Positions 1 through 40,805 of a DNA stretch of 45,232 nucleotides are shown here, piece after piece; within the stretch, counting starts at the first letter, position 1; each line of letters opens with the position of its first letter. A model generated the notes under the pieces. The model was given only the letters and a program-made list of their open reading frames with translations, had not been told where the DNA came from and ran no database searches. Location of the stretch: assembly GCA_020890855.1 (NCBI GenBank), contig JAJHPN010000030.1:1-45232 (forward strand), in the 5' to 3' direction. The translations under genes and the position numbers were made by a program. Origin of the DNA: Candidatus Contendobacter sp. GTDB lineage: Bacteria > Pseudomonadota > Gammaproteobacteria > Competibacterales > Competibacteraceae.

Positions 1-5
1 GCACC

Positions 6-197
6 ATGCCACTGATTCAATTAATTATCGTTTTGGTCGTTTTTGGGGTGATCCTGTGGGCGATCAATACCTACATTCCCATGGATGGCAATATCAAGAA
101 AATCTTGAATGTGGTCGTCATTATTGCTGCGATTCTTTTTGTATTAAGCGCCTTCGGAGTTTTGGGTTCCCTATCAGGAATGCATGTAGGAAGGTAA
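6..197 (+). CDS. small hydrophobic membrane protein (two predicted TM helices)
   Basis: 63-aa ORF, almost entirely hydrophobic (LIQLIIVLVVFGVILWAI ... VVVIIAAILFVLSAFGVLG). It resembles short 'Thivi_2564-type' membrane proteins; that family name is from memory and unverified. Confidence 0.55.
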   Translation: MPLIQLIIVLVVFGVILWAINTYIPMDGNIKKILNVVVIIAAILFVLSAFGVLGSLSGMHVGR

Positions 198-267
198 TTG
201 AATGCGAAACCGTGAGTGATGCGTCGAGCAGACACTCATTCCCGATTCAGAACAGGAGTAAGCCTCA

Positions 268-555
268 ATGTTAACTAGAGACCAATATGTGGAAAAAATG
301 AAACAGCGCCTTGATCAATGGAGCGCTGAAATGGATGTCCTGGAAGCGAAAGCGCATAAGACCCAGGAGGAGGCCAAGGAGAAATATCAGGAGCAACTGG
401 TCGCGCTGCGCGCCAAGCGTCAGGAAGGCGAGGAAAAGCTGAAGGCGATCCAATCGGCAACGGAAGACTCCTGGGAGCAACTTAAAGCAGAAACGGAAAA
501 TGTCTGGGACGCTTTTAAGGATTCTTTCCATGCGTTCAAAGCGCATTTCAAATGA
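268..555 (+). CDS. small charged coiled-coil protein (stress-associated type)
   Basis: 95-aa ORF with ATG start. Helical, K/E/Q-rich heptad-like sequence (EEAKEKYQEQLVALRAKRQEGEEKLKAIQ). No enzyme motif. Confidence 0.55.
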   Translation: MLTRDQYVEKMKQRLDQWSAEMDVLEAKAHKTQEEAKEKYQEQLVALRAKRQEGEEKLKAIQSATEDSWEQLKAETENVWDAFKDSFHAFKAHFK

Positions 556-610
556 GTAAACCCTAAGGCTTTCACTCCGTCCGTTCGCTCTGAGCCTATC
601 GAAGGATCAT

Positions 611-736
611 TGATCAACAGGACTTTCGCTTTTTGTCATTCCCGCGTCAGCGGGAATCCAGTAACCCGCTGAGAAAAATAGATACCCGTTTTCACGGGTA
701 TGACGACGCAAGGTTTATTAGCGAAAGTCCTGATCA
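611..736 (+). mobile_element. MITE-like repeat, diverged copy A
   Basis: Terminal inverted repeats TGATCAACAGGACTTTCGC (611-629) and GCGAAAGTCCTGATCA (721-736). The core has two 8-bp-stem hairpins, ATTCCCGC/GCGGGAAT and ATACCCG./CGGGTAT, shared with the copies at 13551 and 22602. Confidence 0.6.
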
Positions 737-854
737 ATAAAGAACAGGATTCGACCGGCTCACCCCGAACGGTTTTTGAACTGGAAGCAAAAGTTCTGAA
801 ACCTTTTCCACCCTACGAACACCCTAAGATTCATCATTCACCAGGAGTATCACT

Positions 855-1166
855 ATGAAATTATTCAGTCGATTCGCTACCTTTCTTGTCATCATTTTTT
901 TCGCCTCTCTCTTGGGATGCGCCTCAACCTCAAAGCAGGAAGGAACCGGAGAATATGTGGACGACACCGTCCTGACTGGCAAGGTCAAGGCGGCCATCTT
1001 CAACGATCCTGCGCTGAGTTCGGCGGAGATCAACGTTGAAACCTTCAAGGGCGTGGTGCAGTTGAGCGGTTTCGTCAATTCCAAGGGCGACATTAACAAG
1101 GCCATCCAAGTTGCGCGCAGCGTCCCCGGCGTGACATCCGTTAAGAATGACATGCGGCTCAAGTGA
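855..1166 (+). CDS. BON-domain lipoprotein (OsmY-like)
   Basis: 103 aa. Lipobox ...SLLGC-AST. BON-type segment 'DDTVLTGKVKAAIFNDPALSSAEINVETFKGVVQLSGFV...VARSVPGVTSVKNDM'. Confidence 0.85.
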   Translation: MKLFSRFATFLVIIFFASLLGCASTSKQEGTGEYVDDTVLTGKVKAAIFNDPALSSAEINVETFKGVVQLSGFVNSKGDINKAIQVARSVPGVTSVKNDMRLK

Positions 1167-1449
1167 CGGGAGACCGCGCCTCACCAATCGCGAACTGATC
1201 CTCGGGCATTAAGTCCGAGGAGCGGTTCGCTCCGCAGTCGGCCACCGCAACCCAGGAACGGTTTGCTCGATCATTGCCTTCTGATTGAAGAACCCATTCG
1301 CACCGCCCAGCGGCATCGGTCCAAAAAGGGCATAATTCAAGGAAACGTCGCTTTGCATCTATGCGCTAGCGTACAGACCACCCCCTCATCTTGCGTACCA
1401 TATTGAAAATAGTCGTCAGCGGGTTCCCAGAAATCAGGAAGGAGTAGCC

Positions 1450-3201
1450 GTGAACGAGATGAAGCGATCAGCCCCACAACCCCTCTCCAAGAGAGCCACC
1501 GGCATCGAGGGATTCGATGCGCTGAGCGGCGGTGGGTTGCCACGGAACCGCACCACCTTGGTGATGGGTGGTCCTGGATCGGGCAAAACCGTCTTCTCGC
1601 TGCAAGTCCTGGTCAACGCCGCACGCCAGCGCGACGAAGCCGGGATTTTCGTCGCCTTTGAGGAGCGAAGCCACCAGGTCATGGCGAACGCCGCCACCTT
1701 CGATTGGGGGCTGCCCGCGCTGGCGGAAGACCAGATCTATATTCTTGACGCCCATCTATCGCCCACCATCGTCCAGTCCGGCGAGTTTGATTTGAGCGGC
1801 ATCTTAGCCATCCTCAAGGCCAAGCAAGAAGCGATGAACGCTGAGTGGATCGTGTTTGACGGCATCGATGTGTTGCTGACGCTGTTGCGGGACCCGATTT
1901 TGGAAATGCGGGAAATCTATCGGATCCGGGACTGGCTGGCGGACAACGAGTTGACCGCGATCATCACGGCCAAGATGGATAGCCAGGCCTCCGCAGTGGC
2001 GAACTACGGCTTCATGCAGTTCATGGTGGATTGCGTGATTCGCTTCAACCGGCGTCTGGAGTACGGCGTCCCGGCCCACCGGCTCCAAGTCACCAAATAT
2101 CGCGGCTCGGATTTTGCGTCCGGCGAATTTCCGCTCAGTTTTGGGATCTCCGGAATCGAAGTGGCCCCCCCTGAGCCGCCGGAAATTATTCACGAAGCCT
2201 CGACCGAACGGGTGTCCGCCGGCTTTGAGCGTTTCGACATCATGTTAGGGGGTGGCCTGTTCCGGGGCAGCAGCACACTAATCACCGGAGCGCCCGGCAC
2301 CTCCAAGACCACGTTGATTGGCAAGTTTGCCGAGGCCGCCTGCCAACGTGGCGAGCACACCCTGTTCGTGAGCTTCGATGAAGGCGCCGACCAAATCACG
2401 CGCAATTTGTCTTCAGTGGGCATCGATCTCAACACGCACATCCAATCCGGCCTATTGCGGATGTACTCTGGACGAACGGAAGCGCACAGCGCCGAAGAGC
2501 ATTTGATCAAGCTGCGCACGTTGATCCGCGAACATCAACCACGTTGCATGGTGATTGATCCGCTGTCCGCGATGGCTAAGGCTGGAGGGATCGGCGCGGC
2601 GCGCGCGGTCGCCAACCGGCTCATCCACATGATGAAAGATAAAAAAATCACGGTGGTGATCAGCGCCCTCATCGAAGGCAACGATCCGCAGATGGAAGCG
2701 ACCGATCTCCAGATTTCGACCATTGCCGACACCTGGATTCATCTCTCCTATCTGGTGCGCAGCGGGGAACGCAACCGGGCGTTGACCATCGTTAAATCGC
2801 GGGGAACCTGGCACTCCAACCAGGTGCGCGAATTGGTGCTGAGCGAAGCCGGCCCCATGCTCACCGATGTTTATTCCGCCGGGGGTGAAGTGCTCATGGG
2901 CACGCTGCGCTGGGAAAAGGAGGCTGAGGAGAGCGCCCGACAGAAACAGCGACAGGCCGAGTTTGAGCATAAGCAACGCGATCTGGAATTTGCCGAAGCG
3001 GATACGCAGGCCCGAATTAAAGCCCTGCAACTGGATCTTCAGCGGCAGCAGGCCGAACTGGCGTTATACACCCTGGCCGGTGAAGCACGGATTCTGTCCT
3101 CAAGCGAGCGAGAGAATGCGTTACGCCGGATACGCGGGGCCGACTTGTCCACCCGCATGGAGTCGGCTGCGACGTCCCTCACGCCCCGTGAAACCTCGTA
3201 A
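1450..3201 (+). CDS. kaiC: KaiC-family circadian/hourglass ATPase with extended C-terminal tail
   Basis: 583 aa; GTG 1450 is preceded by GGAAGGAG. Duplicated RecA-like halves with Walker A GGPGSGKT and GAPGTSKT. Acidic pairs 'FVAFEE' and 'FVSFDE'. 'QISTIADTWIHL' is a phosphosite-like segment. About 60 extra charged, heptad-rich C-terminal residues. Confidence 0.9.
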   Translation: MNEMKRSAPQPLSKRATGIEGFDALSGGGLPRNRTTLVMGGPGSGKTVFSLQVLVNAARQRDEAGIFVAFEERSHQVMANAATFDWGLPALAEDQIYILDAHLSPTIVQSGEFDLSGILAILKAKQEAMNAEWIVFDGIDVLLTLLRDPILEMREIYRIRDWLADNELTAIITAKMDSQASAVANYGFMQFMVDCVIRFNRRLEYGVPAHRLQVTKYRGSDFASGEFPLSFGISGIEVAPPEPPEIIHEASTERVSAGFERFDIMLGGGLFRGSSTLITGAPGTSKTTLIGKFAEAACQRGEHTLFVSFDEGADQITRNLSSVGIDLNTHIQSGLLRMYSGRTEAHSAEEHLIKLRTLIREHQPRCMVIDPLSAMAKAGGIGAARAVANRLIHMMKDKKITVVISALIEGNDPQMEATDLQISTIADTWIHLSYLVRSGERNRALTIVKSRGTWHSNQVRELVLSEAGPMLTDVYSAGGEVLMGTLRWEKEAEESARQKQRQAEFEHKQRDLEFAEADTQARIKALQLDLQRQQAELALYTLAGEARILSSSERENALRRIRGADLSTRMESAATSLTPRETS

Positions 3202-3248
3202 TGCTTCCGGCTTTGGAACGAGCAAAAAGACCCGCAAGGGGGAGTGAG

Positions 3249-3575
3249 ATGCGCCGCAAACCGATCGTCATACCATCCGATCCCGCTGCCGTGACTGCGG
3301 CAGTGGTGATGCGGCTCTATGTGGTGAGCGGCGCACCGAATTCGGTTCAGGCGCTCGCCAATCTGGAGGCGATTTGTCAGCGGCAATTGAAAGGGAGCTA
3401 CCAGTTGGAGGTGGTTGATGTGCTTGAACAACCACTCCGCGCCTTGGCCGATGGCGTCATCGTCACCCCCAGTCTCATCAAGCTGTCTCCGCCGCCCGCC
3501 GCGCAGATCGTCGGCAACCTCAGCGATAAAAGTAAAGTGCAGCGCGCGCTTGGACTGGAAGAAAAAATCGTATGA
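3249..3575 (+). CDS. kaiB: KaiB clock protein
   Basis: 108 aa from ATG 3249 (RBS GGAG). An alternative ATG at 3201 overlaps the kaiC stop as TAATG. KaiB-like 'RLYVVSGAPNSVQALANL...VVDVLEQP...ADGVIVTPSLIKLSPPP...IVGNLSD'. Confidence 0.85.
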   Translation: MRRKPIVIPSDPAAVTAAVVMRLYVVSGAPNSVQALANLEAICQRQLKGSYQLEVVDVLEQPLRALADGVIVTPSLIKLSPPPAAQIVGNLSDKSKVQRALGLEEKIV

Positions 3576-4459
3576 AAACGGCCAGTTCCGACTCAACAAC
3601 AGAGACTGATTTTGCGGAAACCGAAGCCGCGTTCGCGACGTTCATTCGGCGACTGATCCAGGATGCCGCGACGCTGCGGGCCATCGACTCGGGCGAGGTG
3701 GACGCCATCCTGGATCCGGTGAGTGGCCGCGCGATCCTGCTGCCGGAGGCGCGGGCGGCGCTGCGCGAAGACAAAGCGCCCACCAACCGGGTGTTGGCGA
3801 CCCTGCCCCGCAGGGAATATCAGCGTTTACAAGCCGGATTCGAACTCGTCACACTCAATTTTGGGGATGTGCTCCATGAACCTGGAGAGTTGATTCAGCA
3901 CATCCACTTTCCCAACGAGGGCCTTCTGGTTTCTTTGCTCACGCTGATCCAGGACCACATGGGTTTGGAAATTGGGCTGGTCGGCAGTGAAGGCATGATC
4001 GGACTTCCTGTGGCGCAAGGGATCGATACGTCGTCCGTTCGCGCCGTAGTGCAGGGAACAGGAACGGCCCTGCGGATGGAATCTTCACAATTTCGCCAAG
4101 TCCTCGAAACCAGCCCCGCATTGCAACGTGCGCTCCACCGCTATACCTACGCCCTGATCGCCCAGATTACGCAAACCGCCGCGTGCAACCGCTTTCATCA
4201 GGTGGAAGCGCGCCTTGCCCGTTGGCTGCTGATGGCGAGCGACCGCCTTCAGTCGGACTCCATCCGTTTTACGCACGAATGGCTGGCGGATTTGCTGGGG
4301 GTGCGCCGGGTCGGAGTCACTCTAGCAGCCAGCGCGCTACAGCAACAAAGGCTGATTCAATACAGCCGCGGCAACATCACGATTCTGGATCGAGAAGGTC
4401 TCAAGGTGTCCTCTTGTGAGTGTTACCAGAAGATCAAGGACATTTTCGACCACGCATAG
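3572..4459 (+). CDS. Crp/Fnr-family transcriptional regulator with ~75-aa N-terminal extension
   Basis: 295 aa; its ATG overlaps the kaiB stop (ATGA). cNMP-binding-like barrel region (GDVLHEPGE...HIHFPNEGLLVSL). C-terminal HTH 'FTHEWLADLLGVRRVGVTLAASALQQQRLIQYSRGNITILD'. Confidence 0.85.
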   Translation: MKTASSDSTTETDFAETEAAFATFIRRLIQDAATLRAIDSGEVDAILDPVSGRAILLPEARAALREDKAPTNRVLATLPRREYQRLQAGFELVTLNFGDVLHEPGELIQHIHFPNEGLLVSLLTLIQDHMGLEIGLVGSEGMIGLPVAQGIDTSSVRAVVQGTGTALRMESSQFRQVLETSPALQRALHRYTYALIAQITQTAACNRFHQVEARLARWLLMASDRLQSDSIRFTHEWLADLLGVRRVGVTLAASALQQQRLIQYSRGNITILDREGLKVSSCECYQKIKDIFDHA

Positions 4460-4650
4460 CCCTGACTGACGCCTACTGTCAGTCGTAGCCGCGCAAGGAT
4501 GCTGCCCTCCCCGGCACGTTCGCGCCGGTCTTCCTGCTCAATCAGGACGTCCACTATCCGCTGAATTCGTCATCCCTCCTAAAACAGGTATCCAATATTT
4601 TCAATTGGTTACTCGATTATCACTGGTATGAGAATCACAAAAAGCGAATG

Positions 4651-4676
4651 TTTTAGGGAAAAATTTTAGGGAAAAA
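4651..4676. repeat. perfect 13-bp tandem duplication TTTTAGGGAAAAA x2
   Basis: Read directly in the AT-rich intergenic region upstream of the glucan synthase gene. A partial third TTTAGGG lies at 4729-4735. Confidence 0.9.
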
Positions 4677-4895
4677 AGCCAGGCTTACTGATTGATCTGT
4701 TCGCTAGCGCACAGAAGCTTGTCAGCCATTTAGGGTAGGTTTCTCCCCATTCCAGAAAAAACGAAACAGCGCCCTGTTTTTGATCGAACGAGTCGTTGGG
4801 GTTGCTCTATCGTTGGCCTAAGAAAGGCTTCGCAACGACATGGAAGATTGAAGTTCACTCCGAAGCCGGAGACCGCAAACCCGAAGGTGAGCACT

Positions 4896-7800
4896 ATGAC
4901 TATTCACGAAACGCTGCTCCAGGTGAGGATGCGGATCCTAGGCAACGGCCTGGCCAAAAAGTACGTTGGCGACGAGCAACCCCTGCGGGCGGAACTGTTC
5001 AGCGCCATTCAGATGGAACAGCACGGCAAGGAGCTGGCCGCTTCGCATGTCTTGACGCCGCGTCAGGCGCGAGACCAACTGCTGGTTCGACTCACCGCCA
5101 ACGAGCGGACCCTGATCGACGTGTGTGCGCTGCTCATGGAAGCGGTGACGGCGAACCGGCGGATTGCGCCCGCCGGAGAATGGCTGCTCGATAATTTCTA
5201 TCTGATCGAAGAACAAATCCGCACCGCCAAGCGGCATCTGCCCAAAGGTTATAGCCGGGAGCTGCCGCGTCTGCGCAATGGCTCATCCGCCGGGTTGCCA
5301 CGGGTGTATGACCTCGCGCTGGAGATCATCGCCCACGGCGATGGCCGGGTGGACCCGGAAGCCCTCAGTCGCTTCGTCGCAGCCTATCAGAGCGTCACCC
5401 CGCTGAAGCTGGGTGAGTTGTGGGCCATTCCGATCATGCTGCGCCTGGCGCTGATCGAGAATCTGCGCCGCGTCGCGGCCCGGATCGCCGGCAGCCGCAC
5501 CGGCCATAACCTGGCCGACGAGTGGGCGGATCAGATGACGGCGATGGCGGAGAATGACCCAAAAAATCTGCTGTTGGTGATTGCGGACATGGCGCGATCG
5601 AACCCGCCGATGTCGAGCGCTTTTGTCGCCGAACTGGCGCGTCGGCTCCAAGGCCAGAGTTCCGCTTTGGCGTTGCCGCTGACCTGGATCGAGCAGCAAC
5701 TGGCCGAGTCGAACCTGACCATCGAACAGTTGGTGCAGGTCGAGAACCAGCAACAGGCCGGCGACCAGGTATCGATCAGCAACAGTATCGGCAGTCTCCG
5801 CTTTCTGGGAGCGATGGACTGGCGCGAGTTCGTCGAAACCATGAGTGTGGTCGAGAGTATCTTGCGTGACGACCCTGTCCGGGTGTACGGCAGAATGGAT
5901 TTTGCCAGCCGGGATCGCTATCGGCATGTCGTCGAGAAAGTCGCCAAAAACAGCCAAATTTCCGAAGCGGCGGTGGCTCACCACGCCATTGATCTAGCGC
6001 AGGAAGACGCGGTCAACCGCGACGGCGATCCGCGAACCGCGCATGTCGGGTTTTACCTGATTGACCGGGGATTGGCGCTGCTCGAACGGCGGGTCAAGGC
6101 GTGCCGGTGTACGCTGGAATCGCTGCAACATCAGGCTCGCCGGTTCCCGTTATTCCTGTATGTGGGCGGGATTGCGCTACTGACCGCGCTATTGACCGGG
6201 GGCCTGCTGACCAAAGCCCAGACTGACGACTGGCCTGCTGGGCTGCTCCCGGTGCTGGGTCTGATCGCGTTACTCGGCGTTAGTCATCTGGCGGTTGCTC
6301 TGGTGAACTGGCTGGCTACCTTGCTGGCGACGCCTTATCCGTTGCCGCGTCTCGACTTTTCCGCAGGCATTCCCCCGGAAACCCGGACTTTGGTGGTGAC
6401 CCCGACGATGCTCACCAGCGCCGCGAATATCGAGGATCTGATCGAGGCGCTGGAAGTTCGCTTCCTGGCTAATCGGGACGACAGCCTGCACTTTGGCTTG
6501 TTGACCGATTTTCGGGATGCGCCGGAGGAAACCCTGGCGGAGGATCAAGCGCTGCTGCGGTTGACCGTGCAACGGATTGATGCGCTCAATGAAAAATATC
6601 CGCAGGTGCGCGGCGACACGTTTTTCCTGTTTCACCGCCCGCGCCGCTGGAATCCGCAGGAACAAATCTGGATGGGTTACGAGCGCAAGCGCGGCAAACT
6701 GGCCGATTTGAACGCGCTGCTGCGCGGCGACTGCGGGGATCGCTTTGCGCGGGTGGTCGGCGATACCACCCTGTTATCCAATGTGAAATACGTCATTACC
6801 CTCGATACCGATACCCAGTTGCCGCGGGATGCCGCCCGCGAATTGATCGGCACGATGGCGCACCCGCTCAATCAGGCCCATTACGACGAGCGTCGGCAGC
6901 GGGTCAGCGCCGGTTACGGCATCCTGCAACCGCGCGTGGCCGTGAGTTTGCCCGGCGCCAATCGGTCGCACTATGCGCGGCTGTACGGGAGCGATGCCGG
7001 GATTGACCCCTATACGCAAGCGGTTTCCGATGTCTACCAGGATGGATTTCAGGAAGGCTCGTTCATCGGCAAGGGCATTTACGAGGTCGATGCCTTCGAG
7101 CAGGCGCTCAACGGCCGCTTTCCCGAAAACCGGATTCTCAGTCACGACCTGCTGGAAGGGTGCTACGCCCGGTCCGGGCTGGTCAGCGATGTGCAGTTGT
7201 ACGAAGACTATCCGGCCTGCTACAGCGCTGATGTCAGTCGCCGGTTCCGCTGGATTCGCGGCGACTGGCAGATTGCGCGCTGGTTGTTGCCGCGCGTTCC
7301 CGGTCTGGATGGCCGGTTGCAGAACAACCCGCTGTCGGCCCTGTCGCGCTGGAAACTGTTCGATAACCTGCGGCGCAGCCTAACCCCGGCGGCGTTGATC
7401 CTGCTGTTGATTCTGGGCTGGGCGGTAATGGCGTCGCCCGGATTCTGGACCGGGGCGGTCCTCGGCATCCTCCTGATCCCGGCCTTGGCGACCTCGCTTC
7501 TGAACGTGCTGCGCAAGCCCGGCGATGTGCGCTGGAGCCAGCATCTCGCCGCCGCCGCCCGCGCGACCGGCCACCATTTGGCTCAGGCCGCTTTCACCAT
7601 CGCCTGCCTCCCTTACGAAGCGTTCTTCAGTCTGGAGGCGATGGTTCGCACGATCTGGCGGATGCAGGTCAGCCACCAGCATTTGTTGGAATGGACCTCG
7701 TCGGGCGAACAGGATCGCCACCGCCGTGACTTGATCGCCTTCTACCGGATAATGCGAATGGCCCCCGCGCTGGCCGGGATCACCGCGCTAGGTCTGGCGA

Positions 7801-10800
7801 TAATCAAACCGGCGGTGTTGTTGGTCGCCGGGCCGCTGCTGGTGCTGTGGCTGGCTTCCCCGGCGCTGGCCTGGTGGATGAGTCGCCCACTAACCCATCG
7901 CGAAGCCCGCCTGACCGCTGATCAAACCCGCTTTCTCCATGCCGTGGCTCGTAAAACCTGGGCATTTTTTGAAACCTTCGTCGGCCCGACCGATCATTGG
8001 CTGCCGCCGGACAATGTTCAGGAGCATCCGGTGGCGGTGGTCGCGCATCGCACCTCGCCGACCAACATGGGCTTGTCATTACTCGCCAATCTGGCCGCCT
8101 ATGATTTTGGCTACCTTTCGGCGGGACGGCTGATTGAGCGGACCACCAGCGCACTGGACACGATGGTTGGGCTGGAACGGTATCGCGGCCACTTCTACAA
8201 CTGGTACGACACCCAGTCCCTGAAATCGCTACCGCCGGTCTACATTTCGTCGGTGGACAGCGGCAATCTCGCCGGCCACCTGCTGACCTTGCGGCAGGGG
8301 CTGCTCGGACTGATCGATGATCCGATCCTGAGTCCCCGCTATTTCGCGGGCCTCGGCGACACCTTCAATCTGCTGGTCGAGGCGGCGGAAGGCGCAATAC
8401 CGGCCTCGTTCGCACCCTTTCAGCAGACCCTGGCAGCAGCCACGACCGCGCCCCCGGCTACTCGGGTAGCGGCGCAGTTATGCCTTGACCAGCTGGCGAC
8501 CACCGCCGAGGCCGGAGTTCACGGTCTGGCGGCGAATGCCGGGGGTGAAGTCAGCGACTGGGCGCTGGCGCTGACCCGGCAATGTCGGGAGGCGCTCGAT
8601 GAATGGCTGTTCCTGGCGCCTGCAATCCCCCCGGCTTCGCTACCCCCCTTTGAAAAAGGAGGACAGGTGGAATTGACTGCCCAGGCCATCCCCACCCTGC
8701 GCCAATCGGCGGCGCTGGATCAGGCAGCCAGTGGCCGCGCCCGCGACCGGATCGCCGCGCTTGAACACTTGGCGTTGCAGGCCGGCGAACTGGCGCAAAT
8801 GGACTATGACTTCCTGTTTGACGAGACGCGGCATCTGCTGGCGATTGGCTACAACGTCAGTGAGCGGCGGCGGGATGCCAGCTACTACGACCTGCTGGCG
8901 TCGGAAGCCCGGTTGGGCAGTTTCGTCGCGATTGCTCAGGGTCAACTCCCGCAAGAGAGCTGGTTTGCCCTGGGCCGCTTGCTGATCATCGCCGGTGGCG
9001 AGCCGACCCTGCTGTCGTGGAGCGGCTCGATGTTCGAGTACCTGATGCCGTTGCTGGTGATGCCGACCTATGAAAACACCCTGCTGGATCAGACCGGTCA
9101 GGCGGCGGTGGCCCGGCAAATCGAATACGGCAAGCAGCGCGGCGTCCCCTGGGGCGTTTCGGAATCGGGCTACAACACGGTCGATGTCCAGCTCAACTAC
9201 CAGTACCGCGCCTTCGGAGTGCCCGGTTTGGGGCTGAAGCGCGGTCTGGCCGAAGATTTGGTCATTGCCCCATATGCCTCAGCGCTGGCGCTGATGGTCG
9301 CGCCCGAGGCCGCCTGCCTGAATTTACAACGCCTCGCCGCCGCCGGGTTTGCCGGACGATTCGGTTTCTATGAGGCGATTGACTACACGCCTTCCCGGGT
9401 GCCCCGCGGACAAACCAGCGCGGTGGTGCGGTCGTTCATGGCCCATCATCAGGGCATGAGTTTTCTGGCGCTGACCTACCTGCTGCTGAATCGGCCCATG
9501 CAGCAACGCTTCGTGGCGGCCCCGCTGTTCCAGGCGACCCTCCTGCTGCTCCAGGAGCGGATTCCCAAGGCTCCGGCGTTCTACTCGAACACTACCAGCC
9601 AGATCACCGATCTCCGGCCGACCGCCAGCAGTCAGGACGCGCCGATGCGGGTGTTCAACAACCCCAATACTCCGCTGCCGGAAGTCCAGTTGTTGTCGAA
9701 CGGTCGCTACCATGTGATGGTCACCAACGCCGGCGGCGGCTACAGCCGCTGGAAAGATCTCGCCGTGACCCGCTGGCGCGAAGACGCCACCTGTGACCCG
9801 TGGGGCGCCTTCTGTTACCTCCGCGACGTAGCCAGCGGCGCGTTCTGGTCGACCGCCTATCAGCCGACCTGCCATGTGCCGGACCACTATGAAGCGATTT
9901 TTTCCGAGGGCCGCGCCGAGTTTCGTCGCCACGACCACGAGATCGAGTCCTACACCGAGATTGTGGTCTCACCGGAAGACGACATCGAACTGCGCCGGGT
10001 CCGCATCAGCAACCGTTCCCGGATCCGCCGGGTCATTGAAATCACCAGTTATGCCGAAGTGGTTCTCGCTCCGCCCGCCGCTGACGCGCTGCATCCGGCG
10101 TTCAGCAACCTGTTTGTGCAAACCGAGATTCTCCACCCGCACCCGGCGATCCTGTGTACCCGCCGCCCGCGTTCCCGGGATGAAGCATCGCCCTGGATGC
10201 TGCACCTGATGGTGGTGCGCGGGGCCGAGTGTGGCCCGGTGTCTTACGAGACCGATCGGCTGCGCTTCATCGGTCGCGGTCATACCACCGCCGATCCTCA
10301 GGCGCTGACTCAGGACATGGCGCTTTCGGGTAGCGCCGGCTCGGTGCTGGATCCGGTGGTCGCGATCCGCTATCGGATCACCCTCGATCCCGAACAAACC
10401 GCGACCGTGGATCTGGTATCCGGGATCGGCGAGACCCGCGACAACGCCCTGACCCTGGTCGGCAAATACCAGGATCAGCGGCTGGCGGATCGGGTGTTTG
10501 ACCTGGCCTGGACCCACAGTCAGGTGGTGCTGCGCCAGCTCAACGCCACCCAGGCTGACGCCCAACTCTACGGGCATCTGGCCAGTTCGATCCTCTATGC
10601 CAACGCTACGCTGCGCGCCGAAACCAGCGTCCTCAGCCAGAATCGCCGGGGGCAATCCGGGCTGTGGGGCCACGCCGTCTCCGGCGATGTGCCGATTGTG
10701 CTGCTACAGATTACCGACTCCGCCAACATTGAGCTGGTCCACCAACTGGTGCAGGCCCACGCCTATTGGCGGCTGAAAGGCCTGACCGTGGATCTGGTGA

Positions 10801-13538
10801 TCTGGAACGAAAGTCAGAGCGGCTATCGGCAACAGCTCCATGATCAAATCCTGGGCTTGATTCCGGCGGGCGTTGAAGCCCATGTGATGGATCGGCCCGG
10901 CGGGATCTTCATTCGCCCGGCGGATCAGATTTCGAACGAGGATCGGATTCTGTTCCAAACGGTGGCGCGAGCGGTACTCAGCGACAGCCGGGGTACGCTG
11001 GCGGAACAGCTCAACCGGCGCAGGCCGCTGGAAAAGCGGCTGCCGCGCTTCCAGCCCACCGGCATCCACCGGGCTGAATCGTTGCCGTCTGCCGCCCTGC
11101 CGCGCCGCGATCTGATTCTCGGCAATGGTCTGGGCGGATTCGCCGCCGATGGCCGCGAGTACCTCATCACTCTGGCCCCTGGGCAGACCACGCCCGCGCC
11201 GTGGGTCAATGTGCTGGCGAATCCGAACTTCGGCACGGTCATCTCCGAGAACGGTGTGGCCTACACCTGGAGCGAGAACGCCCACGAGTTCCGCCTGACG
11301 CCCTGGCACAACGACCCGGTCAGCGACGCCAGCGGCGAAGCCTTTTACCTGCGCGACGAAGACAGCGGCCAGTTCTGGTCGCCGACGCCGCTGCCGGCTG
11401 GCGGCGCCACGCCCTATGTCAGTCGGCACGGCTTCGGTTACAGCGTCTTCGAACACGAAGAAAACGGCATCCACTCCGAGTTGTGGGTGTATGTCGCTGT
11501 GGATGCGCCGATCAAGTTCTCGGTGCTGAAGATTCGCAACGAATCGGGCCAAACCCGCCGATTGTCGGCGACCGGCTACATGGAGTGGGTGCTGGGCGAT
11601 CTGCGCCCGAAGTCAGTACTGCATCTGATTACCGAAATCGACCCCACCAGCGGGGCGCTGTTCGCTCGCAATCCGTACAACACCGAGTTCGCCGACCGTT
11701 TGGCCTTTTTCGACGTGGATGATGTGATGCGGACCTTTAGCGGCGACCGCACCGAGTTCATTGGCCGGAACGGCACGCTGCGTCAGCCGGCGGCGATGAC
11801 CCGGGCCGGACTGTCCGGCAAGGTCGGCGCGGCGCTGGATGCCTGCGCGGCGATTCAGGTGAACTTTGAACTGGCCGCTGGGCAAGAGCATGAAATCGTG
11901 TTCCGGCTGGGCGTGGCGGGTCGGCGCGGCGCGGATGACGCCAGCACCCTGGTGCATCGCTGCCGGGGCGCATCAGCGGCGCGGACGGCGCTGGACGCGG
12001 TGCGGCGCCACTGGCAACACACCCTCGGCGCGGTGCAGGTGGCAACGCCGGACCCAGCCCTCAATGTGCTGGCGAACGGCTGGCTGGTGTACCAGACCCT
12101 GGCGTGCCGGCTGTGGGCGCGCAGCGGTTACTACCAGTCGGGCGGCGCGTTTGGGTTCCGCGACCAGTTGCAGGATTTGATGGCGCTGATCCACACCGAA
12201 CCGGGTCTGCTGCGTGAACATTTGCTGCGTTGTGCGGGCCGCCAGTTCCGGGAAGGCGATGTGCAGCATTGGTGGCATCCGCCGTCCGGTCGGGGGGTGC
12301 GAACCCACTGTTCGGATGATTACCTGTGGCTGCCGTTGGCGACCTGCCGCTATGTGCTGACCACCGGTGATACCGGGGTGCTGGATGAACCGGCGCCGTT
12401 TCTGGACGGTCGCCCGGTCCCGGCAGCGGAGGACTCCTATTACGATCTGCCGGTCCGGTCGGAAGCATCGGCCAATTTGTACCAGCACTGTGTCCACGCC
12501 ATCCTGCACGGACTCCGCTTTGGCGAGCATGGCCTGCCGCTGATCGGTTCCGGAGACTGGAACGACGGCATGGATCGGGTCGGGAGAGAGGGCCGGGGCG
12601 AAAGCATCTGGCTGGGCTTTTTCCTCTATGACGTGCTGATCCGCTTCACCGAAATAGCCCGGTTACGGGGGGATCTGTCCTTCGTCGAGCGCTGCCAGCG
12701 CGAGGCGGTGGCCGTCCGTCAGAATCTGGAGCAGCAGGGCTGGGATGGCGGCTGGTATCGCCGCGCCTATTTCGATGACGGGACCCCGCTGGGGTCGGCG
12801 AGCAATGCCGAATGCCAGATTGATTCGATCGCCCAGAGCTGGTCGGTGCTGTCCGGGGCCGGCGATAGCAACCGGGTGCGCCTGGCGATGGCAGCTTTGG
12901 ATACGCGACTGGTGCGCCGCGATCAGGGCCTGATTCAATTGCTGGACCCGCCCTTTGACACCTCGCCGTTGAATCCGGGCTATATCAAAGGCTACGTTCC
13001 CGGCGTGCGGGAGAATGGCGGCCAATACACCCATGCCGCGATCTGGGCGGCGATGGCGTTGGCGGCCCTGGGCGACCGGCAGCGGGCCTGGGAACTGTTC
13101 GCCATGATCAATCCGGTGAACCATGCCCGTTCCCCGGAAGCGGTGGCGATTTACAAGGTGGAACCCTATGTGGTCGCCGCCGATGTGTATGCGGTGGCGC
13201 CCCACACCGGGCGCGGCGGCTGGACCTGGTACACCGGATCGGCGGGCTGGCTGTACCGGCTGATCGTGGAATCGCTGCTGGGGCTGCGGCTGGAAGGGAA
13301 CACCCTGCATTTCGCGCCGTGTCTGCCGGTGGACTGGCCGGGATTCAAACTGCGCTACCGCTATCGGGAAACGACCTACGCCATTGTTGTCACCCAAACT
13401 GCCGACGCAACCGGCGAAATGCGGGTCACGGTGGATGGGGTTGAGCGGGATGATGCCGTGATTCCGCTGGTGGACGACCGCCGGGAACACACGGTTGAGG
13501 TACGCTATCGAACAGATGCGGGTCGGGAAAGATCGTAA
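4896..13538 (+). CDS. ndvB: cyclic beta-1,2-glucan synthase (NdvB/ChvB/Cgs type)
   Basis: 2,880 aa from ATG 4896 (RBS GAAGGTGA; the track ORF begins at TTG 4848). GT region with 'ITLDTDTQLPRDAA'. Hydrophobic TM blocks. C-terminal GH94-like glycan phosphorylase blocks 'FREGDVQHWWHPPSGRGVRT' and 'GSGDWNDGMD'. Size and layout match NdvB/Cgs. Confidence 0.9.
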   Translation: MTIHETLLQVRMRILGNGLAKKYVGDEQPLRAELFSAIQMEQHGKELAASHVLTPRQARDQLLVRLTANERTLIDVCALLMEAVTANRRIAPAGEWLLDNFYLIEEQIRTAKRHLPKGYSRELPRLRNGSSAGLPRVYDLALEIIAHGDGRVDPEALSRFVAAYQSVTPLKLGELWAIPIMLRLALIENLRRVAARIAGSRTGHNLADEWADQMTAMAENDPKNLLLVIADMARSNPPMSSAFVAELARRLQGQSSALALPLTWIEQQLAESNLTIEQLVQVENQQQAGDQVSISNSIGSLRFLGAMDWREFVETMSVVESILRDDPVRVYGRMDFASRDRYRHVVEKVAKNSQISEAAVAHHAIDLAQEDAVNRDGDPRTAHVGFYLIDRGLALLERRVKACRCTLESLQHQARRFPLFLYVGGIALLTALLTGGLLTKAQTDDWPAGLLPVLGLIALLGVSHLAVALVNWLATLLATPYPLPRLDFSAGIPPETRTLVVTPTMLTSAANIEDLIEALEVRFLANRDDSLHFGLLTDFRDAPEETLAEDQALLRLTVQRIDALNEKYPQVRGDTFFLFHRPRRWNPQEQIWMGYERKRGKLADLNALLRGDCGDRFARVVGDTTLLSNVKYVITLDTDTQLPRDAARELIGTMAHPLNQAHYDERRQRVSAGYGILQPRVAVSLPGANRSHYARLYGSDAGIDPYTQAVSDVYQDGFQEGSFIGKGIYEVDAFEQALNGRFPENRILSHDLLEGCYARSGLVSDVQLYEDYPACYSADVSRRFRWIRGDWQIARWLLPRVPGLDGRLQNNPLSALSRWKLFDNLRRSLTPAALILLLILGWAVMASPGFWTGAVLGILLIPALATSLLNVLRKPGDVRWSQHLAAAARATGHHLAQAAFTIACLPYEAFFSLEAMVRTIWRMQVSHQHLLEWTSSGEQDRHRRDLIAFYRIMRMAPALAGITALGLAIIKPAVLLVAGPLLVLWLASPALAWWMSRPLTHREARLTADQTRFLHAVARKTWAFFETFVGPTDHWLPPDNVQEHPVAVVAHRTSPTNMGLSLLANLAAYDFGYLSAGRLIERTTSALDTMVGLERYRGHFYNWYDTQSLKSLPPVYISSVDSGNLAGHLLTLRQGLLGLIDDPILSPRYFAGLGDTFNLLVEAAEGAIPASFAPFQQTLAAATTAPPATRVAAQLCLDQLATTAEAGVHGLAANAGGEVSDWALALTRQCREALDEWLFLAPAIPPASLPPFEKGGQVELTAQAIPTLRQSAALDQAASGRARDRIAALEHLALQAGELAQMDYDFLFDETRHLLAIGYNVSERRRDASYYDLLASEARLGSFVAIAQGQLPQESWFALGRLLIIAGGEPTLLSWSGSMFEYLMPLLVMPTYENTLLDQTGQAAVARQIEYGKQRGVPWGVSESGYNTVDVQLNYQYRAFGVPGLGLKRGLAEDLVIAPYASALALMVAPEAACLNLQRLAAAGFAGRFGFYEAIDYTPSRVPRGQTSAVVRSFMAHHQGMSFLALTYLLLNRPMQQRFVAAPLFQATLLLLQERIPKAPAFYSNTTSQITDLRPTASSQDAPMRVFNNPNTPLPEVQLLSNGRYHVMVTNAGGGYSRWKDLAVTRWREDATCDPWGAFCYLRDVASGAFWSTAYQPTCHVPDHYEAIFSEGRAEFRRHDHEIESYTEIVVSPEDDIELRRVRISNRSRIRRVIEITSYAEVVLAPPAADALHPAFSNLFVQTEILHPHPAILCTRRPRSRDEASPWMLHLMVVRGAECGPVSYETDRLRFIGRGHTTADPQALTQDMALSGSAGSVLDPVVAIRYRITLDPEQTATVDLVSGIGETRDNALTLVGKYQDQRLADRVFDLAWTHSQVVLRQLNATQADAQLYGHLASSILYANATLRAETSVLSQNRRGQSGLWGHAVSGDVPIVLLQITDSANIELVHQLVQAHAYWRLKGLTVDLVIWNESQSGYRQQLHDQILGLIPAGVEAHVMDRPGGIFIRPADQISNEDRILFQTVARAVLSDSRGTLAEQLNRRRPLEKRLPRFQPTGIHRAESLPSAALPRRDLILGNGLGGFAADGREYLITLAPGQTTPAPWVNVLANPNFGTVISENGVAYTWSENAHEFRLTPWHNDPVSDASGEAFYLRDEDSGQFWSPTPLPAGGATPYVSRHGFGYSVFEHEENGIHSELWVYVAVDAPIKFSVLKIRNESGQTRRLSATGYMEWVLGDLRPKSVLHLITEIDPTSGALFARNPYNTEFADRLAFFDVDDVMRTFSGDRTEFIGRNGTLRQPAAMTRAGLSGKVGAALDACAAIQVNFELAAGQEHEIVFRLGVAGRRGADDASTLVHRCRGASAARTALDAVRRHWQHTLGAVQVATPDPALNVLANGWLVYQTLACRLWARSGYYQSGGAFGFRDQLQDLMALIHTEPGLLREHLLRCAGRQFREGDVQHWWHPPSGRGVRTHCSDDYLWLPLATCRYVLTTGDTGVLDEPAPFLDGRPVPAAEDSYYDLPVRSEASANLYQHCVHAILHGLRFGEHGLPLIGSGDWNDGMDRVGREGRGESIWLGFFLYDVLIRFTEIARLRGDLSFVERCQREAVAVRQNLEQQGWDGGWYRRAYFDDGTPLGSASNAECQIDSIAQSWSVLSGAGDSNRVRLAMAALDTRLVRRDQGLIQLLDPPFDTSPLNPGYIKGYVPGVRENGGQYTHAAIWAAMALAALGDRQRAWELFAMINPVNHARSPEAVAIYKVEPYVVAADVYAVAPHTGRGGWTWYTGSAGWLYRLIVESLLGLRLEGNTLHFAPCLPVDWPGFKLRYRYRETTYAIVVTQTADATGEMRVTVDGVERDDAVIPLVDDRREHTVEVRYRTDAGRERS

Positions 13539-13550
13539 TACCCATTCTGA

Positions 13551-15545
<1,995 letters not shown>

Positions 15546-15553
<8 letters not shown>

Positions 15554-15884
15554 CCCATTGGAAAGCCAGCGCGGGAAAGACCCGACAGCGTTCAGTCGAG
15601 AAGTCGGCGCGAAGGCGGCGCGCAAGCTCAAGGCGCGGCGTAACCCCACGCCGGGGGTCTGGTTTGGCCTGGGCATGATGGGGCTGATCGGCTGGTCGGT
15701 GGTGGTGCCGACGCTGCTCGGCGCGATGCTGGGCTTGTGGTTGGACCGAACGTATCCGGGCGGCCGTTCCTGGACACTGGCGCTGCTGGTGGCCGGGCTG
15801 GCGATGGGCTGTTTCAATGCGTGGCGTTGGGTTGCCAAGGAAGACCAGGCCATGCGGAAGGAACAGGAGGATGACGATGAATGA
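15546..15884 (+). CDS. atpQ: AtpZ/AtpI-like small membrane protein of N-ATPase operons
   Basis: 112 aa with two TM helices (VWFGLGMMGLIGWSVVVPTLLGAMLGLWL; WTLALLVAGLAMGCFNAW). Located between atpC and atpR. Confidence 0.75.
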
Positions 15885-16197
15885 AACCTGGATCTTGATA
15901 TTGGCCGGGCTGGCGGGCGCTGCACTCGGGGCGCTGTTTTTCGGCGGCCTGTGGTGGACGATTCGCAAAGGAACGTCATCCCAACGGCCAGCGCTATGGT
16001 TTTTCGGCAGTTTTCTACTGCGGACAAGCCTGACGCTGGCTGGATTTTACGAGGTCGCTGGCGATCAGTGGCAGCGGTTGCTGGCGTGTCTCGTGGGATT
16101 TGTCATGGCGCGTCTGATCATCCTGCAACTGACTCGAACGGCGCAACAGCCCACTGCCTGGGTAGCGGAGGCTGACCATGCGCCTGAGTCCGGATGA
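15871..16197 (+). CDS. atpR: N-ATPase subunit AtpR
   Basis: About 108 aa (ATG 15871 or 15877, after AGGAGG). Hydrophobic, with the 'FFGGLWWTIRKG' motif characteristic of AtpR. Located before atpB. Confidence 0.75.
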   Translation: MTMNETWILILAGLAGAALGALFFGGLWWTIRKGTSSQRPALWFFGSFLLRTSLTLAGFYEVAGDQWQRLLACLVGFVMARLIILQLTRTAQQPTAWVAEADHAPESG

Positions 16198-16873
16198 GAT
16201 GATTTTTTGGCAATACGGGTTTTTCAAACTCAACGCTACCCTGGTGTTTACCTGGGGATTGATGCTGGTGCTGGTCGTCAGTTCAACCCTCATTACCCGC
16301 AAGCTTTCCACCGATCTGAAGCGTACCCGCTGGCAGAATCTGCTGGAAATCATCGTCACCGCCATCGAGAAACAAATCGAAGAAGTGGGCCTGAGCCAGC
16401 CGCGAAAATACCTCGGTTTTCTGGGCACGCTGTTCCTGTTCATCGCGCTATCCGCCCTCTGCACCGTGATCCCCGGCTACGAGCCGCCGACCGGCTCGCT
16501 ATCAACCACCGTCGCCCTCGCCTTGTGCGTGCTGGTGGCGGTACCGTTCTTCGGCATCCAGGATCAGGGAGTGGGCGGCTATCTCAAATCCTACATCGAG
16601 CCGACGTTCATCATGCTGCCGTTTAACATCATCAGCGAAATCTCCCGCACCCTGGCCTTGGCTGTCCGACTGTTCGGCAACATGATGAGCGGGGCGATGA
16701 TCATCGGCATTCTGCTGTCGATTACGCCCTTCATCTTTCCCATCATCATGACGCTGCTTGGTCTGCTCACCGGCATGGTGCAGGCCTATATCTTCACCAT
16801 CCTGGCCGCCGTTTACATTGTGGCCGCCACCCGCACACGTCAGCCTAAACCTGAACCTGCGGCTGAAACCTGA
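16178..16873 (+). CDS. atpB: F0 a subunit
   Basis: 231 aa; RBS GGAGG. Polytopic, with the stator Arg context 'LALAVRLFGNMMSG'. Confidence 0.88.
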   Translation: MRLSPDEMIFWQYGFFKLNATLVFTWGLMLVLVVSSTLITRKLSTDLKRTRWQNLLEIIVTAIEKQIEEVGLSQPRKYLGFLGTLFLFIALSALCTVIPGYEPPTGSLSTTVALALCVLVAVPFFGIQDQGVGGYLKSYIEPTFIMLPFNIISEISRTLALAVRLFGNMMSGAMIIGILLSITPFIFPIIMTLLGLLTGMVQAYIFTILAAVYIVAATRTRQPKPEPAAET

Positions 16874-16898
16874 GACCACCACCCATCAAGGACATCCC

Positions 16899-17180
16899 AT
16901 GGAAAGCATGACCCTCATTGCAGTGACATCCATCGTCATCGCCGGACTCACGACCGGTTTCGGCACGATGGGACCGGCGCTGGCGGAAGGTCGGGCGGTT
17001 GCGACCGCGCTGACTGCGCTGGCGCAGCAACCCGACGCCTCCGCGACCATCACCCGCACCCTGTTCGTGGGTTTGGCGATGATCGAGTCCACGGCGATCT
17101 ACTGTTTCGTGGTTTCGATGATTCTGCTTTTCGCCAATCCGTTCTGGAACTTCGCCATCGCGCAGGCGGCGGGAAAGTAA
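16899..17180 (+). CDS. atpE: F0 c subunit (rotor ring)
   Basis: 93 aa from ATG 16899 inside a longer track ORF. Helical hairpin with 'GPALAEGRA' in helix 1 and 'GLAMIESTAIY' in helix 2. Confidence 0.88.
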   Translation: MESMTLIAVTSIVIAGLTTGFGTMGPALAEGRAVATALTALAQQPDASATITRTLFVGLAMIESTAIYCFVVSMILLFANPFWNFAIAQAAGK

Positions 17181-17183
17181 GCC

Positions 17184-17999
17184 ATGCTCATCGACTGGTT
17201 CACCGTGGGTGCGCAGGTGCTTAACTTCCTCATCCTGGTGTGGTTGATGAAGCACTTTCTCTACCAACCGATCCTCGACGCCATCGATGCGCGGGAACAG
17301 CGGATCGCGACCGAACTGACCAACGCCGCTGCGAAACAGGCCGAAGCGCAACAGGAGCGTGAGGCGTTCCAGCGCAAGAACACCGAGTTTGCCCAACAGC
17401 GCGCCGCGCTCTTGAAACAGGCGACTGACGAGGCGCAGACGGAACGCGAGCGACTCCTCGACGAGGCGCGGAAGGCCGCTGCGGCTTTGCAGGCAAAACG
17501 GCAGGAAACATTGAGAAACGAAGCACAGCACTTGCATCAGGCGCTTCGCCGCCGAACCCAGCAGGAAGTATTTGCCATCGCCCGCAAGGCGCTGACTGAT
17601 CTGGCCGGGACAAGTCTGGAAGAACGGATGGTTGAGGTGTTCGCTGGCCGATTGCGTGAACTCGACGGAGCGGAACAGGACCGGCTGACCGCGGCGCTCA
17701 AGGCGTCGCCTGGCCCGGTGATGGTTCGCACCGCATTCGACCTGCCGCCGGCGCAGCGCGCCTCCACCGAAGCGGCGATCAAGGAAAGCCTGGGCCTGGA
17801 GACGCCCGCCCAGTTCACAACGGCCCCTGACCTGATCAGCGGTATTGAACTCACCACGAATGGGCAAAAGGTCGCGTGGAGCATCGCGGATTATCTGGCG
17901 TCGCTGGAAAAAGGCGTCGCGGAACTGCTCAAAGCGCAGGATTTACCTGAAGCCGCGCCGGAACCGGAACAACCTCAGCCCGAAGTCACCCACTCATGA
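17184..17999 (+). CDS. atpF: F0 b subunit, long N-ATPase form (b/delta-like)
   Basis: 271 aa. N-terminal TM helix ([15 protein letters not shown]), then a long charged helix. No separate delta gene is present in the operon. Confidence 0.8.
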
Positions 18000-19537: not shown

Positions 19538-19565
19538 CCATTCATCACCAACCCAGGAGAACACC

Positions 19566-19937
19566 ATGCAAATTCAAATCAATACCGACCGTAATATTCC
19601 AGGTCACGAGGCGTTGGCTGCTTGGGTCAGTGGCGTCGTGGAGAATACTCTGAGCCGATTCAGCGATCACATCACACGAGTGGAAGTTCATCTGAGTGAT
19701 GAGAACAGCGACAAGAAGGGCGGCAATGACAACATGCGCTGCTTGATGGAAGCCCGCCTGGAAGGTCGCCAACCGGTCGCGGTGACGCATCAGGCCGCAA
19801 CCTTGGACCAAGCCGTTGACGGCGCTGCCGACAAGTTGGCCCGTTTGATCGAGAGTACCCTCGGGCGGCTGCGTGATCACAAGGGTCGCCGGACTGAGCT
19901 GCCTCCGGGGGAGCCGAACCTCACCGATCCGTCATGA
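19566..19937 (+). CDS. HPF/RaiA-family (ribosome-associated inhibitor-like) small protein embedded in the ATPase operon
   Basis: 123 aa from ATG 19566 (RBS AGGAG). 'MQIQINTDRNIPG...ITRVEVHLSDENSDKKGGNDNMRCLMEARLEGRQPVAVTHQAATLDQAVDGAADKL' matches short HPF/RaiA-like proteins (from memory). Its stop overlaps the atpG start (ATGA). Confidence 0.65.
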   Translation: MQIQINTDRNIPGHEALAAWVSGVVENTLSRFSDHITRVEVHLSDENSDKKGGNDNMRCLMEARLEGRQPVAVTHQAATLDQAVDGAADKLARLIESTLGRLRDHKGRRTELPPGEPNLTDPS

Positions 19938-25461: not shown

Positions 25462-25527
25462 GGCGGTCGGTTCGACAACGCACACAGGCGACGCCTTTTC
25501 TTTTTGTGCGCTACCGAACCGACCGCC
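25462..25527. promoter_or_regulatory. 13-bp perfect inverted repeat in a divergent promoter region
   Basis: GGCGGTCGGTTCG (25462-25474) and CGAACCGACCGCC (25515-25527), separated by 40 nt. Located between csbD (minus strand) and the methyltransferase gene (plus strand). Confidence 0.5.
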
Positions 25528-31953: not shown

Positions 31954-32178
31954 ACGATCTCTCAGCGGCGGCTTGCGGCGCACGAGAGGTTTGCGACGGA
32001 CCTTCATCTGCGCTGAATGAGGACTGATCGTGAGCTGTGCCCAGCCTTTTGTACGCTACCGTACAGACTGGCTCGGGGACGATCGGGCATCATCGGCCTA
32101 TCGCTCCGCAAAAGTGACGCTATCCCGCTTGACCGCACTCAAATCCCACGACAGCCCATTGCCGATCCTGGCGGATTC

Positions 32179-36993: not shown

Positions 36994-37074
36994 GATAAAA
37001 AACCTAAATTGGAGATATTGACTGTGATTGCTAAAACTGCCCGAACCAATCAACTTAAAAGTGAGGAATGCACA

Positions 37075-40790: not shown

Positions 40791-40805
40791 TGGTGCGCTA
40801 TGTGC
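40791..40805 (+). promoter_or_regulatory. possible sigma-54 (-24/-12) promoter
   Basis: TGGTGCGCTATGTGC versus consensus TGGCACG-N4-TTGC. GG and GC are at the correct spacing, with 3 mismatches. It lies 141 nt upstream of the first DUF2173 gene. Confidence 0.25.

Follow-up and report, generated by a model that had tools for sequence, protein, structure and literature searches.

A Crp/Fnr-fold regulator with a Kai-linked N-terminal module as the candidate output of a kaiC-kaiB operon in Candidatus Contendobacter

We analyzed a 45,232-nucleotide (nt) stretch of DNA from Candidatus Contendobacter sp. (contig JAJHPN010000030.1, assembly GCA_020890855.1), hereafter the window, and found a kaiC-kaiB operon whose third gene encodes a regulator of the Crp/Fnr fold. 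The first ~65 residues of this regulator span a conserved module characteristic of the protein encoded after kaiB, irrespective of its output domain. With slightly better than even confidence, we read the locus as a kaiC-kaiB-X operon, X being the third gene, in which the kinase has been replaced by a Crp-fold factor, with the module docking the regulator to KaiB/KaiC and the state of the timer controlling its binding to DNA, including at its own promoter. The locus bears on how non-cyanobacterial KaiBC proto-clocks signal their state to the cell, and it could represent a candidate direct transcriptional output of a bacterial proto-clock. The genes and protein segments concerned are the following:

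kaiC: 1450-3201, forward strand; 583 amino acids (aa), GTG start behind GGAAGGAG; two RecA/KaiC domains, the motif ISTIADTW and a KaiC2-type C-terminal extension.
KaiC charged helical tail: KaiC residues 487-543, 2908-3078, forward strand; homologous to the coiled-coil stalk of Rhodobacter sphaeroides KaiC.
kaiB: 3249-3575, forward strand; 108 aa from an ATG behind the ribosome-binding site AAGGGGGAG; the frame is open from 3201.
Crp/Fnr-fold regulator: 3572-4459, forward strand; 295 aa, its ATG overlapping the kaiB stop.
Kai-linked N-terminal module: regulator residues 16-66, 3617-3769, forward strand; predicted helix-helix-beta hairpin-helix.
Divergent cyclic nucleotide monophosphate (cNMP)-like beta-barrel: regulator residues 97-180, 3860-4111, forward strand; PF00027 at 19.7 bits, below the cut-off of 27.5, the fold being assigned by AlphaFold2 and Foldseek.
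HTH_Crp_2 DNA-binding domain: regulator residues 213-278, 4208-4405, forward strand; PF13545 at 55.6 bits (cut-off 27).

An earlier reading of the same DNA (the original prediction) had placed kaiC, kaiB and the regulator in this order, with an ATGA overlap between the last two. The list of open reading frames (ORFs) agrees with this, as does the junction itself, which reads gtATGAaa and gives a 4-nt overlap. The ATG at 3249, preceded by AAGGGGGAG, is a more likely start for kaiB than the start of the open frame at 3201, and tblastn conservation of KaiB begins at residue 1 of the protein that starts there. KaiB, encoded beside kaiC, matched PF07689 with 79.8 bits (cut-off 27) and scored 75.7 bits with the cyanobacterial equivalog models, under their cut-off of 110. 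Neither KaiA nor a histidine kinase was found among the 25 window ORFs scanned (five around the kai genes and 20 of the largest downstream), in line with the earlier claim that no kaiA lies on the flanks. As in a kaiC-kaiB-PAS/histidine kinase operon, kaiC, kaiB and a signaling gene form one unit, but the third gene is not a PAS histidine kinase: it encodes HTH_Crp_2 and the cNMP-like barrel, with no PAS or HATPase_c. The regulator also lacked a match to PF07689 or to a kinase, and is thus not of the SasA type, which combines a KaiB-like domain with a histidine kinase.

The three-gene order was kept down to ~50% regulator identity, usually with the 4-nt overlap. It was seen in Competibacteraceae, Steroidobacteraceae and Burkholderiales and in many metagenomes from soil, wetlands and wastewater, and the abundance of relatives in these metagenomes suggests that the circuit is ecologically widespread. 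The nearest genome was a Candidatus Competibacteraceae metagenome-assembled genome (locus L007), with proteins 91-97% identical. The original prediction had named beforehand several outcomes that would count against it, among them a lack of conserved kaiC-kaiB-crp synteny; every one of those that was looked into came out in its favor, and its interpretation is supported.

The N-terminal module was kept in regulators down to 50% overall identity. G41, D44 and L57 were invariant and P49 and G52 nearly so, and the segment LRAIDSGEVDAILDP spans residues 35-49. In the AlphaFold2 model, in which the module had a predicted local distance difference test (pLDDT) score of ~78, helices at residues 9-28 and 32-39 are followed by a beta-hairpin (45-56) and a further helix (58-66). 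The module matched nothing in Pfam, NCBIfam or the Protein Data Bank (PDB), and thus had no solved homolog there. PDB sequence hits were rejected as trivial 'GEVDA' matches in solute-binding proteins and dehydrogenases, while Foldseek, run on the regulator, matched the Crp core only and not the module.

To find other carriers of the module, we searched its profile against 1.84 billion representative proteins. This retrieved 221 clusters, in nearly all of which the module forms the very N-terminus of the protein. Fifty-seven long module proteins carried PAS (48), HATPase_c (29), HisKA (19), GAF (17), HTH_Crp_2 (5) and GGDEF/EAL (3) domains. Eight non-Crp module proteins were looked up, and seven of them directly follow kaiC-kaiB (P0144, P0189, P0208, P0241, P0233, P0265 and P0253), with a kaiC of 571-589 aa at these loci where it was complete. 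One protein, P0129, resembled a natural fusion of KaiB and the module and was rejected as a frameshifted gene call. The N-terminal extension that the original prediction had noticed is specific to genes after kaiB and common to the PAS-kinases in that slot.

We also examined the association starting from KaiB. In each of 45 metagenomic loci whose KaiB shares 58% identity or more with the one in the window, a module ORF directly follows kaiB, starting between -18 and +105 nt from the kaiB end; roughly 34 of these ORFs were of the Crp type and a few of the kinase type. Loci with a KaiB at most 52% identical, some of them in the cyanobacterial kaiB-kaiC order, had no module ORF. For the Crp side, 80 genome loci were taken from more than 600 paralogs of the Crp core. 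Eight of them bear the module, and they alone are preceded by kaiB and kaiC of this type (a contig end truncates one of the eight, and L052 has kaiB without a kaiC match). Near the other 72 loci, all without the module, neither kaiC nor kaiB of this type was found.

Crp-type partners were not uniform in size. The module was kept in relatives of 437 and 567 aa, where one or two inserted PAS domains separate it from the Crp core. The size classes of ~295, 440 and 570-590 aa correspond to zero, one and two PAS domains (L004 8001-9314; L052 6957-8660; L112, L113 and L120). Because of these three classes, we suggest that the Crp-type partner derived stepwise from a PAS-containing partner. Pairs of kaiB and X were also found without an adjacent kaiC, at L052 (6634-8660) and L105 (3270-4471), with more than 3 kb upstream devoid of kaiC. 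Their persistence points to KaiB as the closest partner of the module.

The model of the whole regulator came from a 79-sequence alignment (mean pLDDT 85); a 14-sequence alignment gave an unusable model (pLDDT 57). Foldseek assigned the Crp/Fnr fold to residues ~75-295, the best match being GlxR (4cyd; E 2e-13, target-normalized TM-score 0.82). The original prediction of a cNMP-binding/HTH Crp-Fnr regulator holds for the HTH_Crp_2 domain and the Crp fold; the cNMP_binding match stayed below threshold, and a cyclic nucleotide is probably not a ligand of the beta-barrel. An hhalign comparison covered only the C-terminal half of the regulator, and the ligand-contact residues were not reliably alignable. 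The invariant R246 aligns with R180 of E. coli CRP. The only cysteines are C205, C282 and C284, all invariant in the alignments, and the regulator sequence has no N-terminal Cys cluster of the kind that ligates the Fe-S center in FNR.

The Crp core belongs to a subfamily with the motifs AACNRFH and ARLARWLLM. It occurs in Beta- and Gammaproteobacteria and Acidobacteriota, often with its genes in tandem, and a genome scan found more than 600 paralogs; no further paralog was found elsewhere in the window. To our knowledge, neither this subfamily nor its operator motif, given below, has been described. Within the subfamily, Cys205 and His209 (AACNRFH) and Cys282 and Cys284 (CxCY) never vary, whether or not the Kai module is present, and they may form a metal or redox site. 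These features would suit an alternative without any physical coupling, in which an ordinary autoregulated Crp member controls kaiCB and neighboring stress genes by its own ligand or redox signal, and the extension is a lineage-specific addition, for example for oligomerization, inherited with the operon. The four invariant residues could provide the redox or metal sensor, and most paralogs have no kai genes nearby while bearing the same operator before their own genes. Still, we consider this alternative unlikely, since kinases and GGDEF proteins of unrelated output also begin with this module, specifically after kaiB, since it is missing from all 72 non-kai paralogs, and since the tight, often overlapping kaiB-X junction is conserved.

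PF06745 matched KaiC twice (E 1e-82), confirming two tandem RecA-like KaiC domains, and the protein passed the NCBIfam equivalog NF006799 with 487 bits (cut-off 408). Its best solved relative was R. sphaeroides KaiC (PDB 8DBA, E 2e-100), in an alignment that covers residues 12-543 of the query, runs through the coiled-coil segment and extends to residue 533 of 8DBA. The tail was conserved in all module-linked KaiCs compared, and every module-linked KaiC examined was tail-extended (571-597 aa). The original prediction had described a charged, heptad-like tail. Its extension indeed aligns with the 8DBA coiled coil, but the heptad and Fourier analysis, a crude count, gave only a modest, register-consistent signal, and we read the tail as a coiled coil because of its homology to 8DBA.

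In R. sphaeroides, this tail joins two hexamers and is part of an allosteric path that replaces KaiA, the stalk undergoes a phosphorylation-dependent register shift, and it is the ATP:ADP ratio that drives the timer (Pitsawong et al. 2023, PMC10076222). The module could be imagined to dock on the C-terminal stalk of KaiC rather than on KaiB, its N-terminal amphipathic helix reading the documented register shift (PMC10076222). The presence of the tail in every module-linked KaiC examined would fit such docking, as would the long helix (9-28) that opens the module and the fact that alphaproteobacterial kinases share mainly this helix and the GEVDA turn. However, kaiB-X pairs persist without an adjacent kaiC, and conservation in the module is strongest in the beta-hairpin (G41, D44, P49 and G52), not in the first helix. 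Docking on the stalk is thus very unlikely in our judgment.

The KaiC motif ISTIADTW aligns with the S431/T432 context (HISTITDT in S. elongatus) and with LSSLMDGW of R. sphaeroides, giving S-T phosphosites. This agrees with the earlier assignment of ISTIADT. The same reading had held both Walker A loops to be intact, along with the CI FEE pair. CI is canonical (GGPGSGKT, FEE), but the CII P-loop (window 2257-2280) reads GAPGTSKT, with Ser replacing the usual Gly before Lys, and the CII catalytic pair (window 2368-2376) is D-E (F-D-E) and not E-E. Both deviations are clade-wide, with GAPGT[SA]K[TS] as the P-loop consensus; they occur in Crp-linked and kinase-linked relatives, and not in the KaiC of R. 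sphaeroides or S. elongatus.

We next turned to the DNA that the regulator is predicted to bind. The operator of the Crp subfamily was taken as the 20-bp palindrome TCTGTnCGCTAGCGnACAGA (TGT-N10-ACA, half-site TGTnCGC), whose outer TGT...ACA has the 16-bp spacing of the CRP site. Two sites and one gene are central here:

Operator-like palindrome TCTATGCGCTAGCGTACAGA: 1358-1377, unstranded; centered 82 nt before the kaiC start, with a degenerate left half and a perfect right half.
Perfect operator palindrome TCTGTTCGCTAGCGCACAGA: 4696-4715, unstranded; after the regulator stop and ahead of the glucan-synthase-like gene.
Cyclic beta-1,2-glucan synthase-like gene: 4848-13538, forward strand; 2896 aa with GH94 domains; the operator at 4696 lies upstream.

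The operator matched the window 5-6 times, where shuffles gave an expectation of 0.02-0.08. In 1.13 Mb of loci selected only for this Crp subfamily there were ~170 matches, for which we estimate a chance expectation of about 4, and many of them sit 60-250 nt before a paralog gene (for example L043 7887, L062 7809 and L076 7908). Given this wide occurrence before Crp paralogs, TCTGTnCGCTAGCGnACAGA is apparently the operator of the whole large subfamily, as predicted from sequence. Each of the seven Crp-linked kaiC promoters has a site 41-86 nt upstream of the start, in which the left half is always weak and the right half a perfect ACAGA. No good operator match was found before kaiC at the kinase-linked loci L090-L092 (4-6 mismatches). 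Two known motifs were considered and rejected: a LexA SOS box because the spacing is CTGT-N10-ACAG and not N8, and the Burkholderia lxa motif because lxa is TGA-N6-TCA (PMC3721108).

The original prediction had named a cyclic-glucan synthase as the next gene downstream, which its GH94 domains bear out, and the perfect operator precedes this gene. The operator at 4696 is kept in L007 (9115), the link to the glucan synthase having been checked in close relatives only. We regard the glucan-synthase-like gene as a candidate target of the regulator. Weaker operators were found at 13497-13516 before an atp operon, at 25503-25522 before a cyclopropane-fatty-acid synthase gene (25651), at 32048-32067 at the start of an efflux operon (32017) and at 40799-40818 among small ORFs. 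Much of the window may form one regulon. Outside the window, L052 has an operator 60 nt before kaiB. A perfect tandem direct repeat, TTTTAGGGAAAAA twice at 4651-4676, lies 20 nt before the 4696 operator; it is present in the near-identical relatives L095 and L107 and deleted in L007.

These sites also bear on whether the regulator is an output at all. It could instead be an input or modulator that binds KaiB through the module and tunes the association of KaiB with KaiC, as KidA does in S. elongatus or KaiA does for KaiC, while its DNA binding only autoregulates the operon. KidA itself docks on fold-switched KaiB, which makes the clock period shorter (PMC9478674), sensory PAS and GAF domains occur in module proteins, and the regulator retains a ligand-type beta-barrel and has an operator before kaiC. 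What makes this role quite improbable to us is that most module proteins end in output domains (kinases, GGDEF/EAL or HTH) and that a perfect operator precedes a non-kai gene, with more sites scattered through the window.

Under the reading that we favor, in which the Crp-fold factor has replaced the kinase and reports the timer state, the circuit would work as follows. By analogy, KaiC would autophosphorylate without KaiA through an exposed A-loop and its coiled-coil tail, and KaiB would bind one phospho/nucleotide state of KaiC, as in the ATP:ADP-driven cycle of R. sphaeroides. The module would dock the regulator onto KaiB or the KaiB-KaiC complex, possibly with its beta-hairpin extending the edge strand of fold-switched KaiB, in the manner of cyanobacterial CikA and KaiA. 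Docking would sequester or switch the regulator dimer, operator occupancy would follow the timer state, and an autoregulatory loop would close on the kaiC promoter. The gated stress and envelope genes would include the glucan synthase and possibly the N-ATPase-like operon, the cyclopropane-fatty-acid synthase and the efflux genes.

A wider proposal, to which we give somewhat less than even credence, is that the module is an undescribed universal adaptor that docks interchangeable outputs (kinases, GGDEF/EAL proteins and the Crp factor) on KaiB or KaiB-KaiC of a KaiC2-KaiB2 hourglass. KaiCB would here be a direct, autoregulated transcriptional switch, joining a post-translational timer to a transcriptional feedback loop and gating osmotic and envelope stress genes in a feast-famine bacterium. 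The short, conserved and easily mutated module may be a docking element common to all third-gene partners. Since the partner in this locus is predicted to bind DNA itself, with a 20-bp operator in its own promoter and another before a plausible target gene, the question of the output reduces to binding assays and one reporter fusion. There would be no unknown response regulator to find if the partner binds DNA directly.

Several points weigh against the reading of a docked, timer-controlled regulator. First, the module and kaiB could occur together through common descent of a single operon lineage and not through contact. The PAS-GGDEF-EAL protein P0261 (L166 634-2865) bears the module, with a good N-terminal match, and is not beside kaiB; on its short contig, its gene comes after that of a membrane protein. 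In alphaproteobacterial kinases, the match is limited to the first half of the module, with the helix and the 'AIRxGEVDALVV' turn, and scores 7-9 bits. The CII domain of KaiC is non-canonical by its motifs (GAPGTSKT, D-E), and kinase activity is an assumption. Paralogs with near-identical recognition helices probably share operators, and the assignment of a regulon to this particular regulator is therefore uncertain. Lastly, the KaiC homologs of Legionella and Pseudomonas act in stress resistance without evidence of timing.

Two genes lie just upstream of kaiC:

sll1863-family stress protein gene: 268-555.
OsmY-like BON lipoprotein gene: 855-1166.

A BON gene is also found upstream of the Steroidobacteraceae kai locus (L001 345-671). 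Directly after the BON gene of the window is an inverted repeat at 1190-1230, with 16-nt arms that are 88% complementary and a 9-nt loop. It is probably the terminator of the BON gene, in which case kaiC would stand first in its unit. Scans of positions 1-5200 for sigma-70 promoters and terminators performed no better than on shuffled sequence, and no Rfam families or tRNAs were found in the window. Further downstream, an extra F-type ATPase operon (13693-20836) starts with the beta subunit, followed by a, alpha and gamma. N-ATPases, which have a link to Na+ export, typically show this subunit order. The efflux operon from 32017 consists of OEP/HlyD/ABC/MacB genes, and after the MacB-type efflux genes, positions 37009-38268 encode a secreted ice-binding-like protein with DUF7933 and an IPTL-CTERM sorting signal.

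How does this locus compare with known Kai systems? In purple bacteria, the operon of Rhodopseudomonas palustris and R. sphaeroides is published as the 'kaiC-B-PAS/HK operon', HK being a histidine kinase (Ma et al. 2016, PMC4794148), and PAS genes beside kai homologs outside cyanobacteria were noted in the KidA paper (PMC9478674). We found kaiC, kaiB and an HWE kinase gene on a plasmid of Cereibacter (Rhodobacter) sphaeroides KD131, and the same layout on a Sinorhizobium plasmid. Considering the published operon and its recurrence elsewhere, the window locus is a variant of a known operon type. The kaiC-kaiB-X operon as such is already published, and what sets this locus apart is the one-component transcription factor in place of the kinase. 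Full-text searches, in which most subscription papers were not covered, found neither the module nor a Crp-type Kai partner described, and no report of a kaiCB-Crp combination, which is consistent with the original prediction that such an output is undescribed. No report of a dissection of the kai-neighboring PAS-kinases was found either, though the neighbors themselves have been noted.

Like the R. palustris and R. sphaeroides operons, the locus has kaiC, kaiB and a third gene, no kaiA and a tail-extended KaiC; the third gene starts close to the kaiB stop or right at it, and the protein carries a helix and 'AIxxGEVDA' in its N-terminal part. It differs from them in that the third gene encodes a Crp-fold DNA-binding protein without a kinase and in that the kaiC promoter holds the subfamily operator. 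The KaiC proteins differ as well, with S-T phosphosites (S-S in R. sphaeroides), GAPGT[SA]K in CII and the CII D-E pair. The module of Beta- and Gammaproteobacteria is longer than that of Alphaproteobacteria, to which it adds the DPxxGxxxLLxxA hairpin and a helix. With the Kai systems of Legionella pneumophila and Pseudomonas, the locus shares a non-photosynthetic proteobacterial host, kai genes among stress genes and signaling genes beside kaiC. Pseudomonas, in contrast, has no KaiB and has kinase/response-regulator neighbors, with no Crp-type partner reported.

As a DNA-binding protein, the regulator resembles GlxR, M. tuberculosis CRP, CLP and E. coli CRP in its beta-barrel, long dimerization helix and winged HTH (TM-score ~0.8). 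It is only ~15-20% identical to these proteins and differs in its extra N-terminal module and its half-site TGTnCGC. As a Kai partner, it would be comparable by role to SasA, CikA and KidA, signaling proteins that read the state of KaiB/KaiC by direct docking. KidA is a multi-PAS GGDEF-EAL protein that binds fold-switched KaiB via its N-terminal domains, shortening the clock period (PMC9478674). The architecture of the module protein P0261 recalls that of S. elongatus KidA, a KaiB binder that is likewise unlinked to the kai genes. The regulator has neither the KaiB-like thioredoxin domain of SasA nor the pseudo-receiver of CikA, and its 295-aa form has no PAS domain. Unlike that of SasA and CikA, its output would be direct binding to DNA and not a phosphorelay to RpaA.

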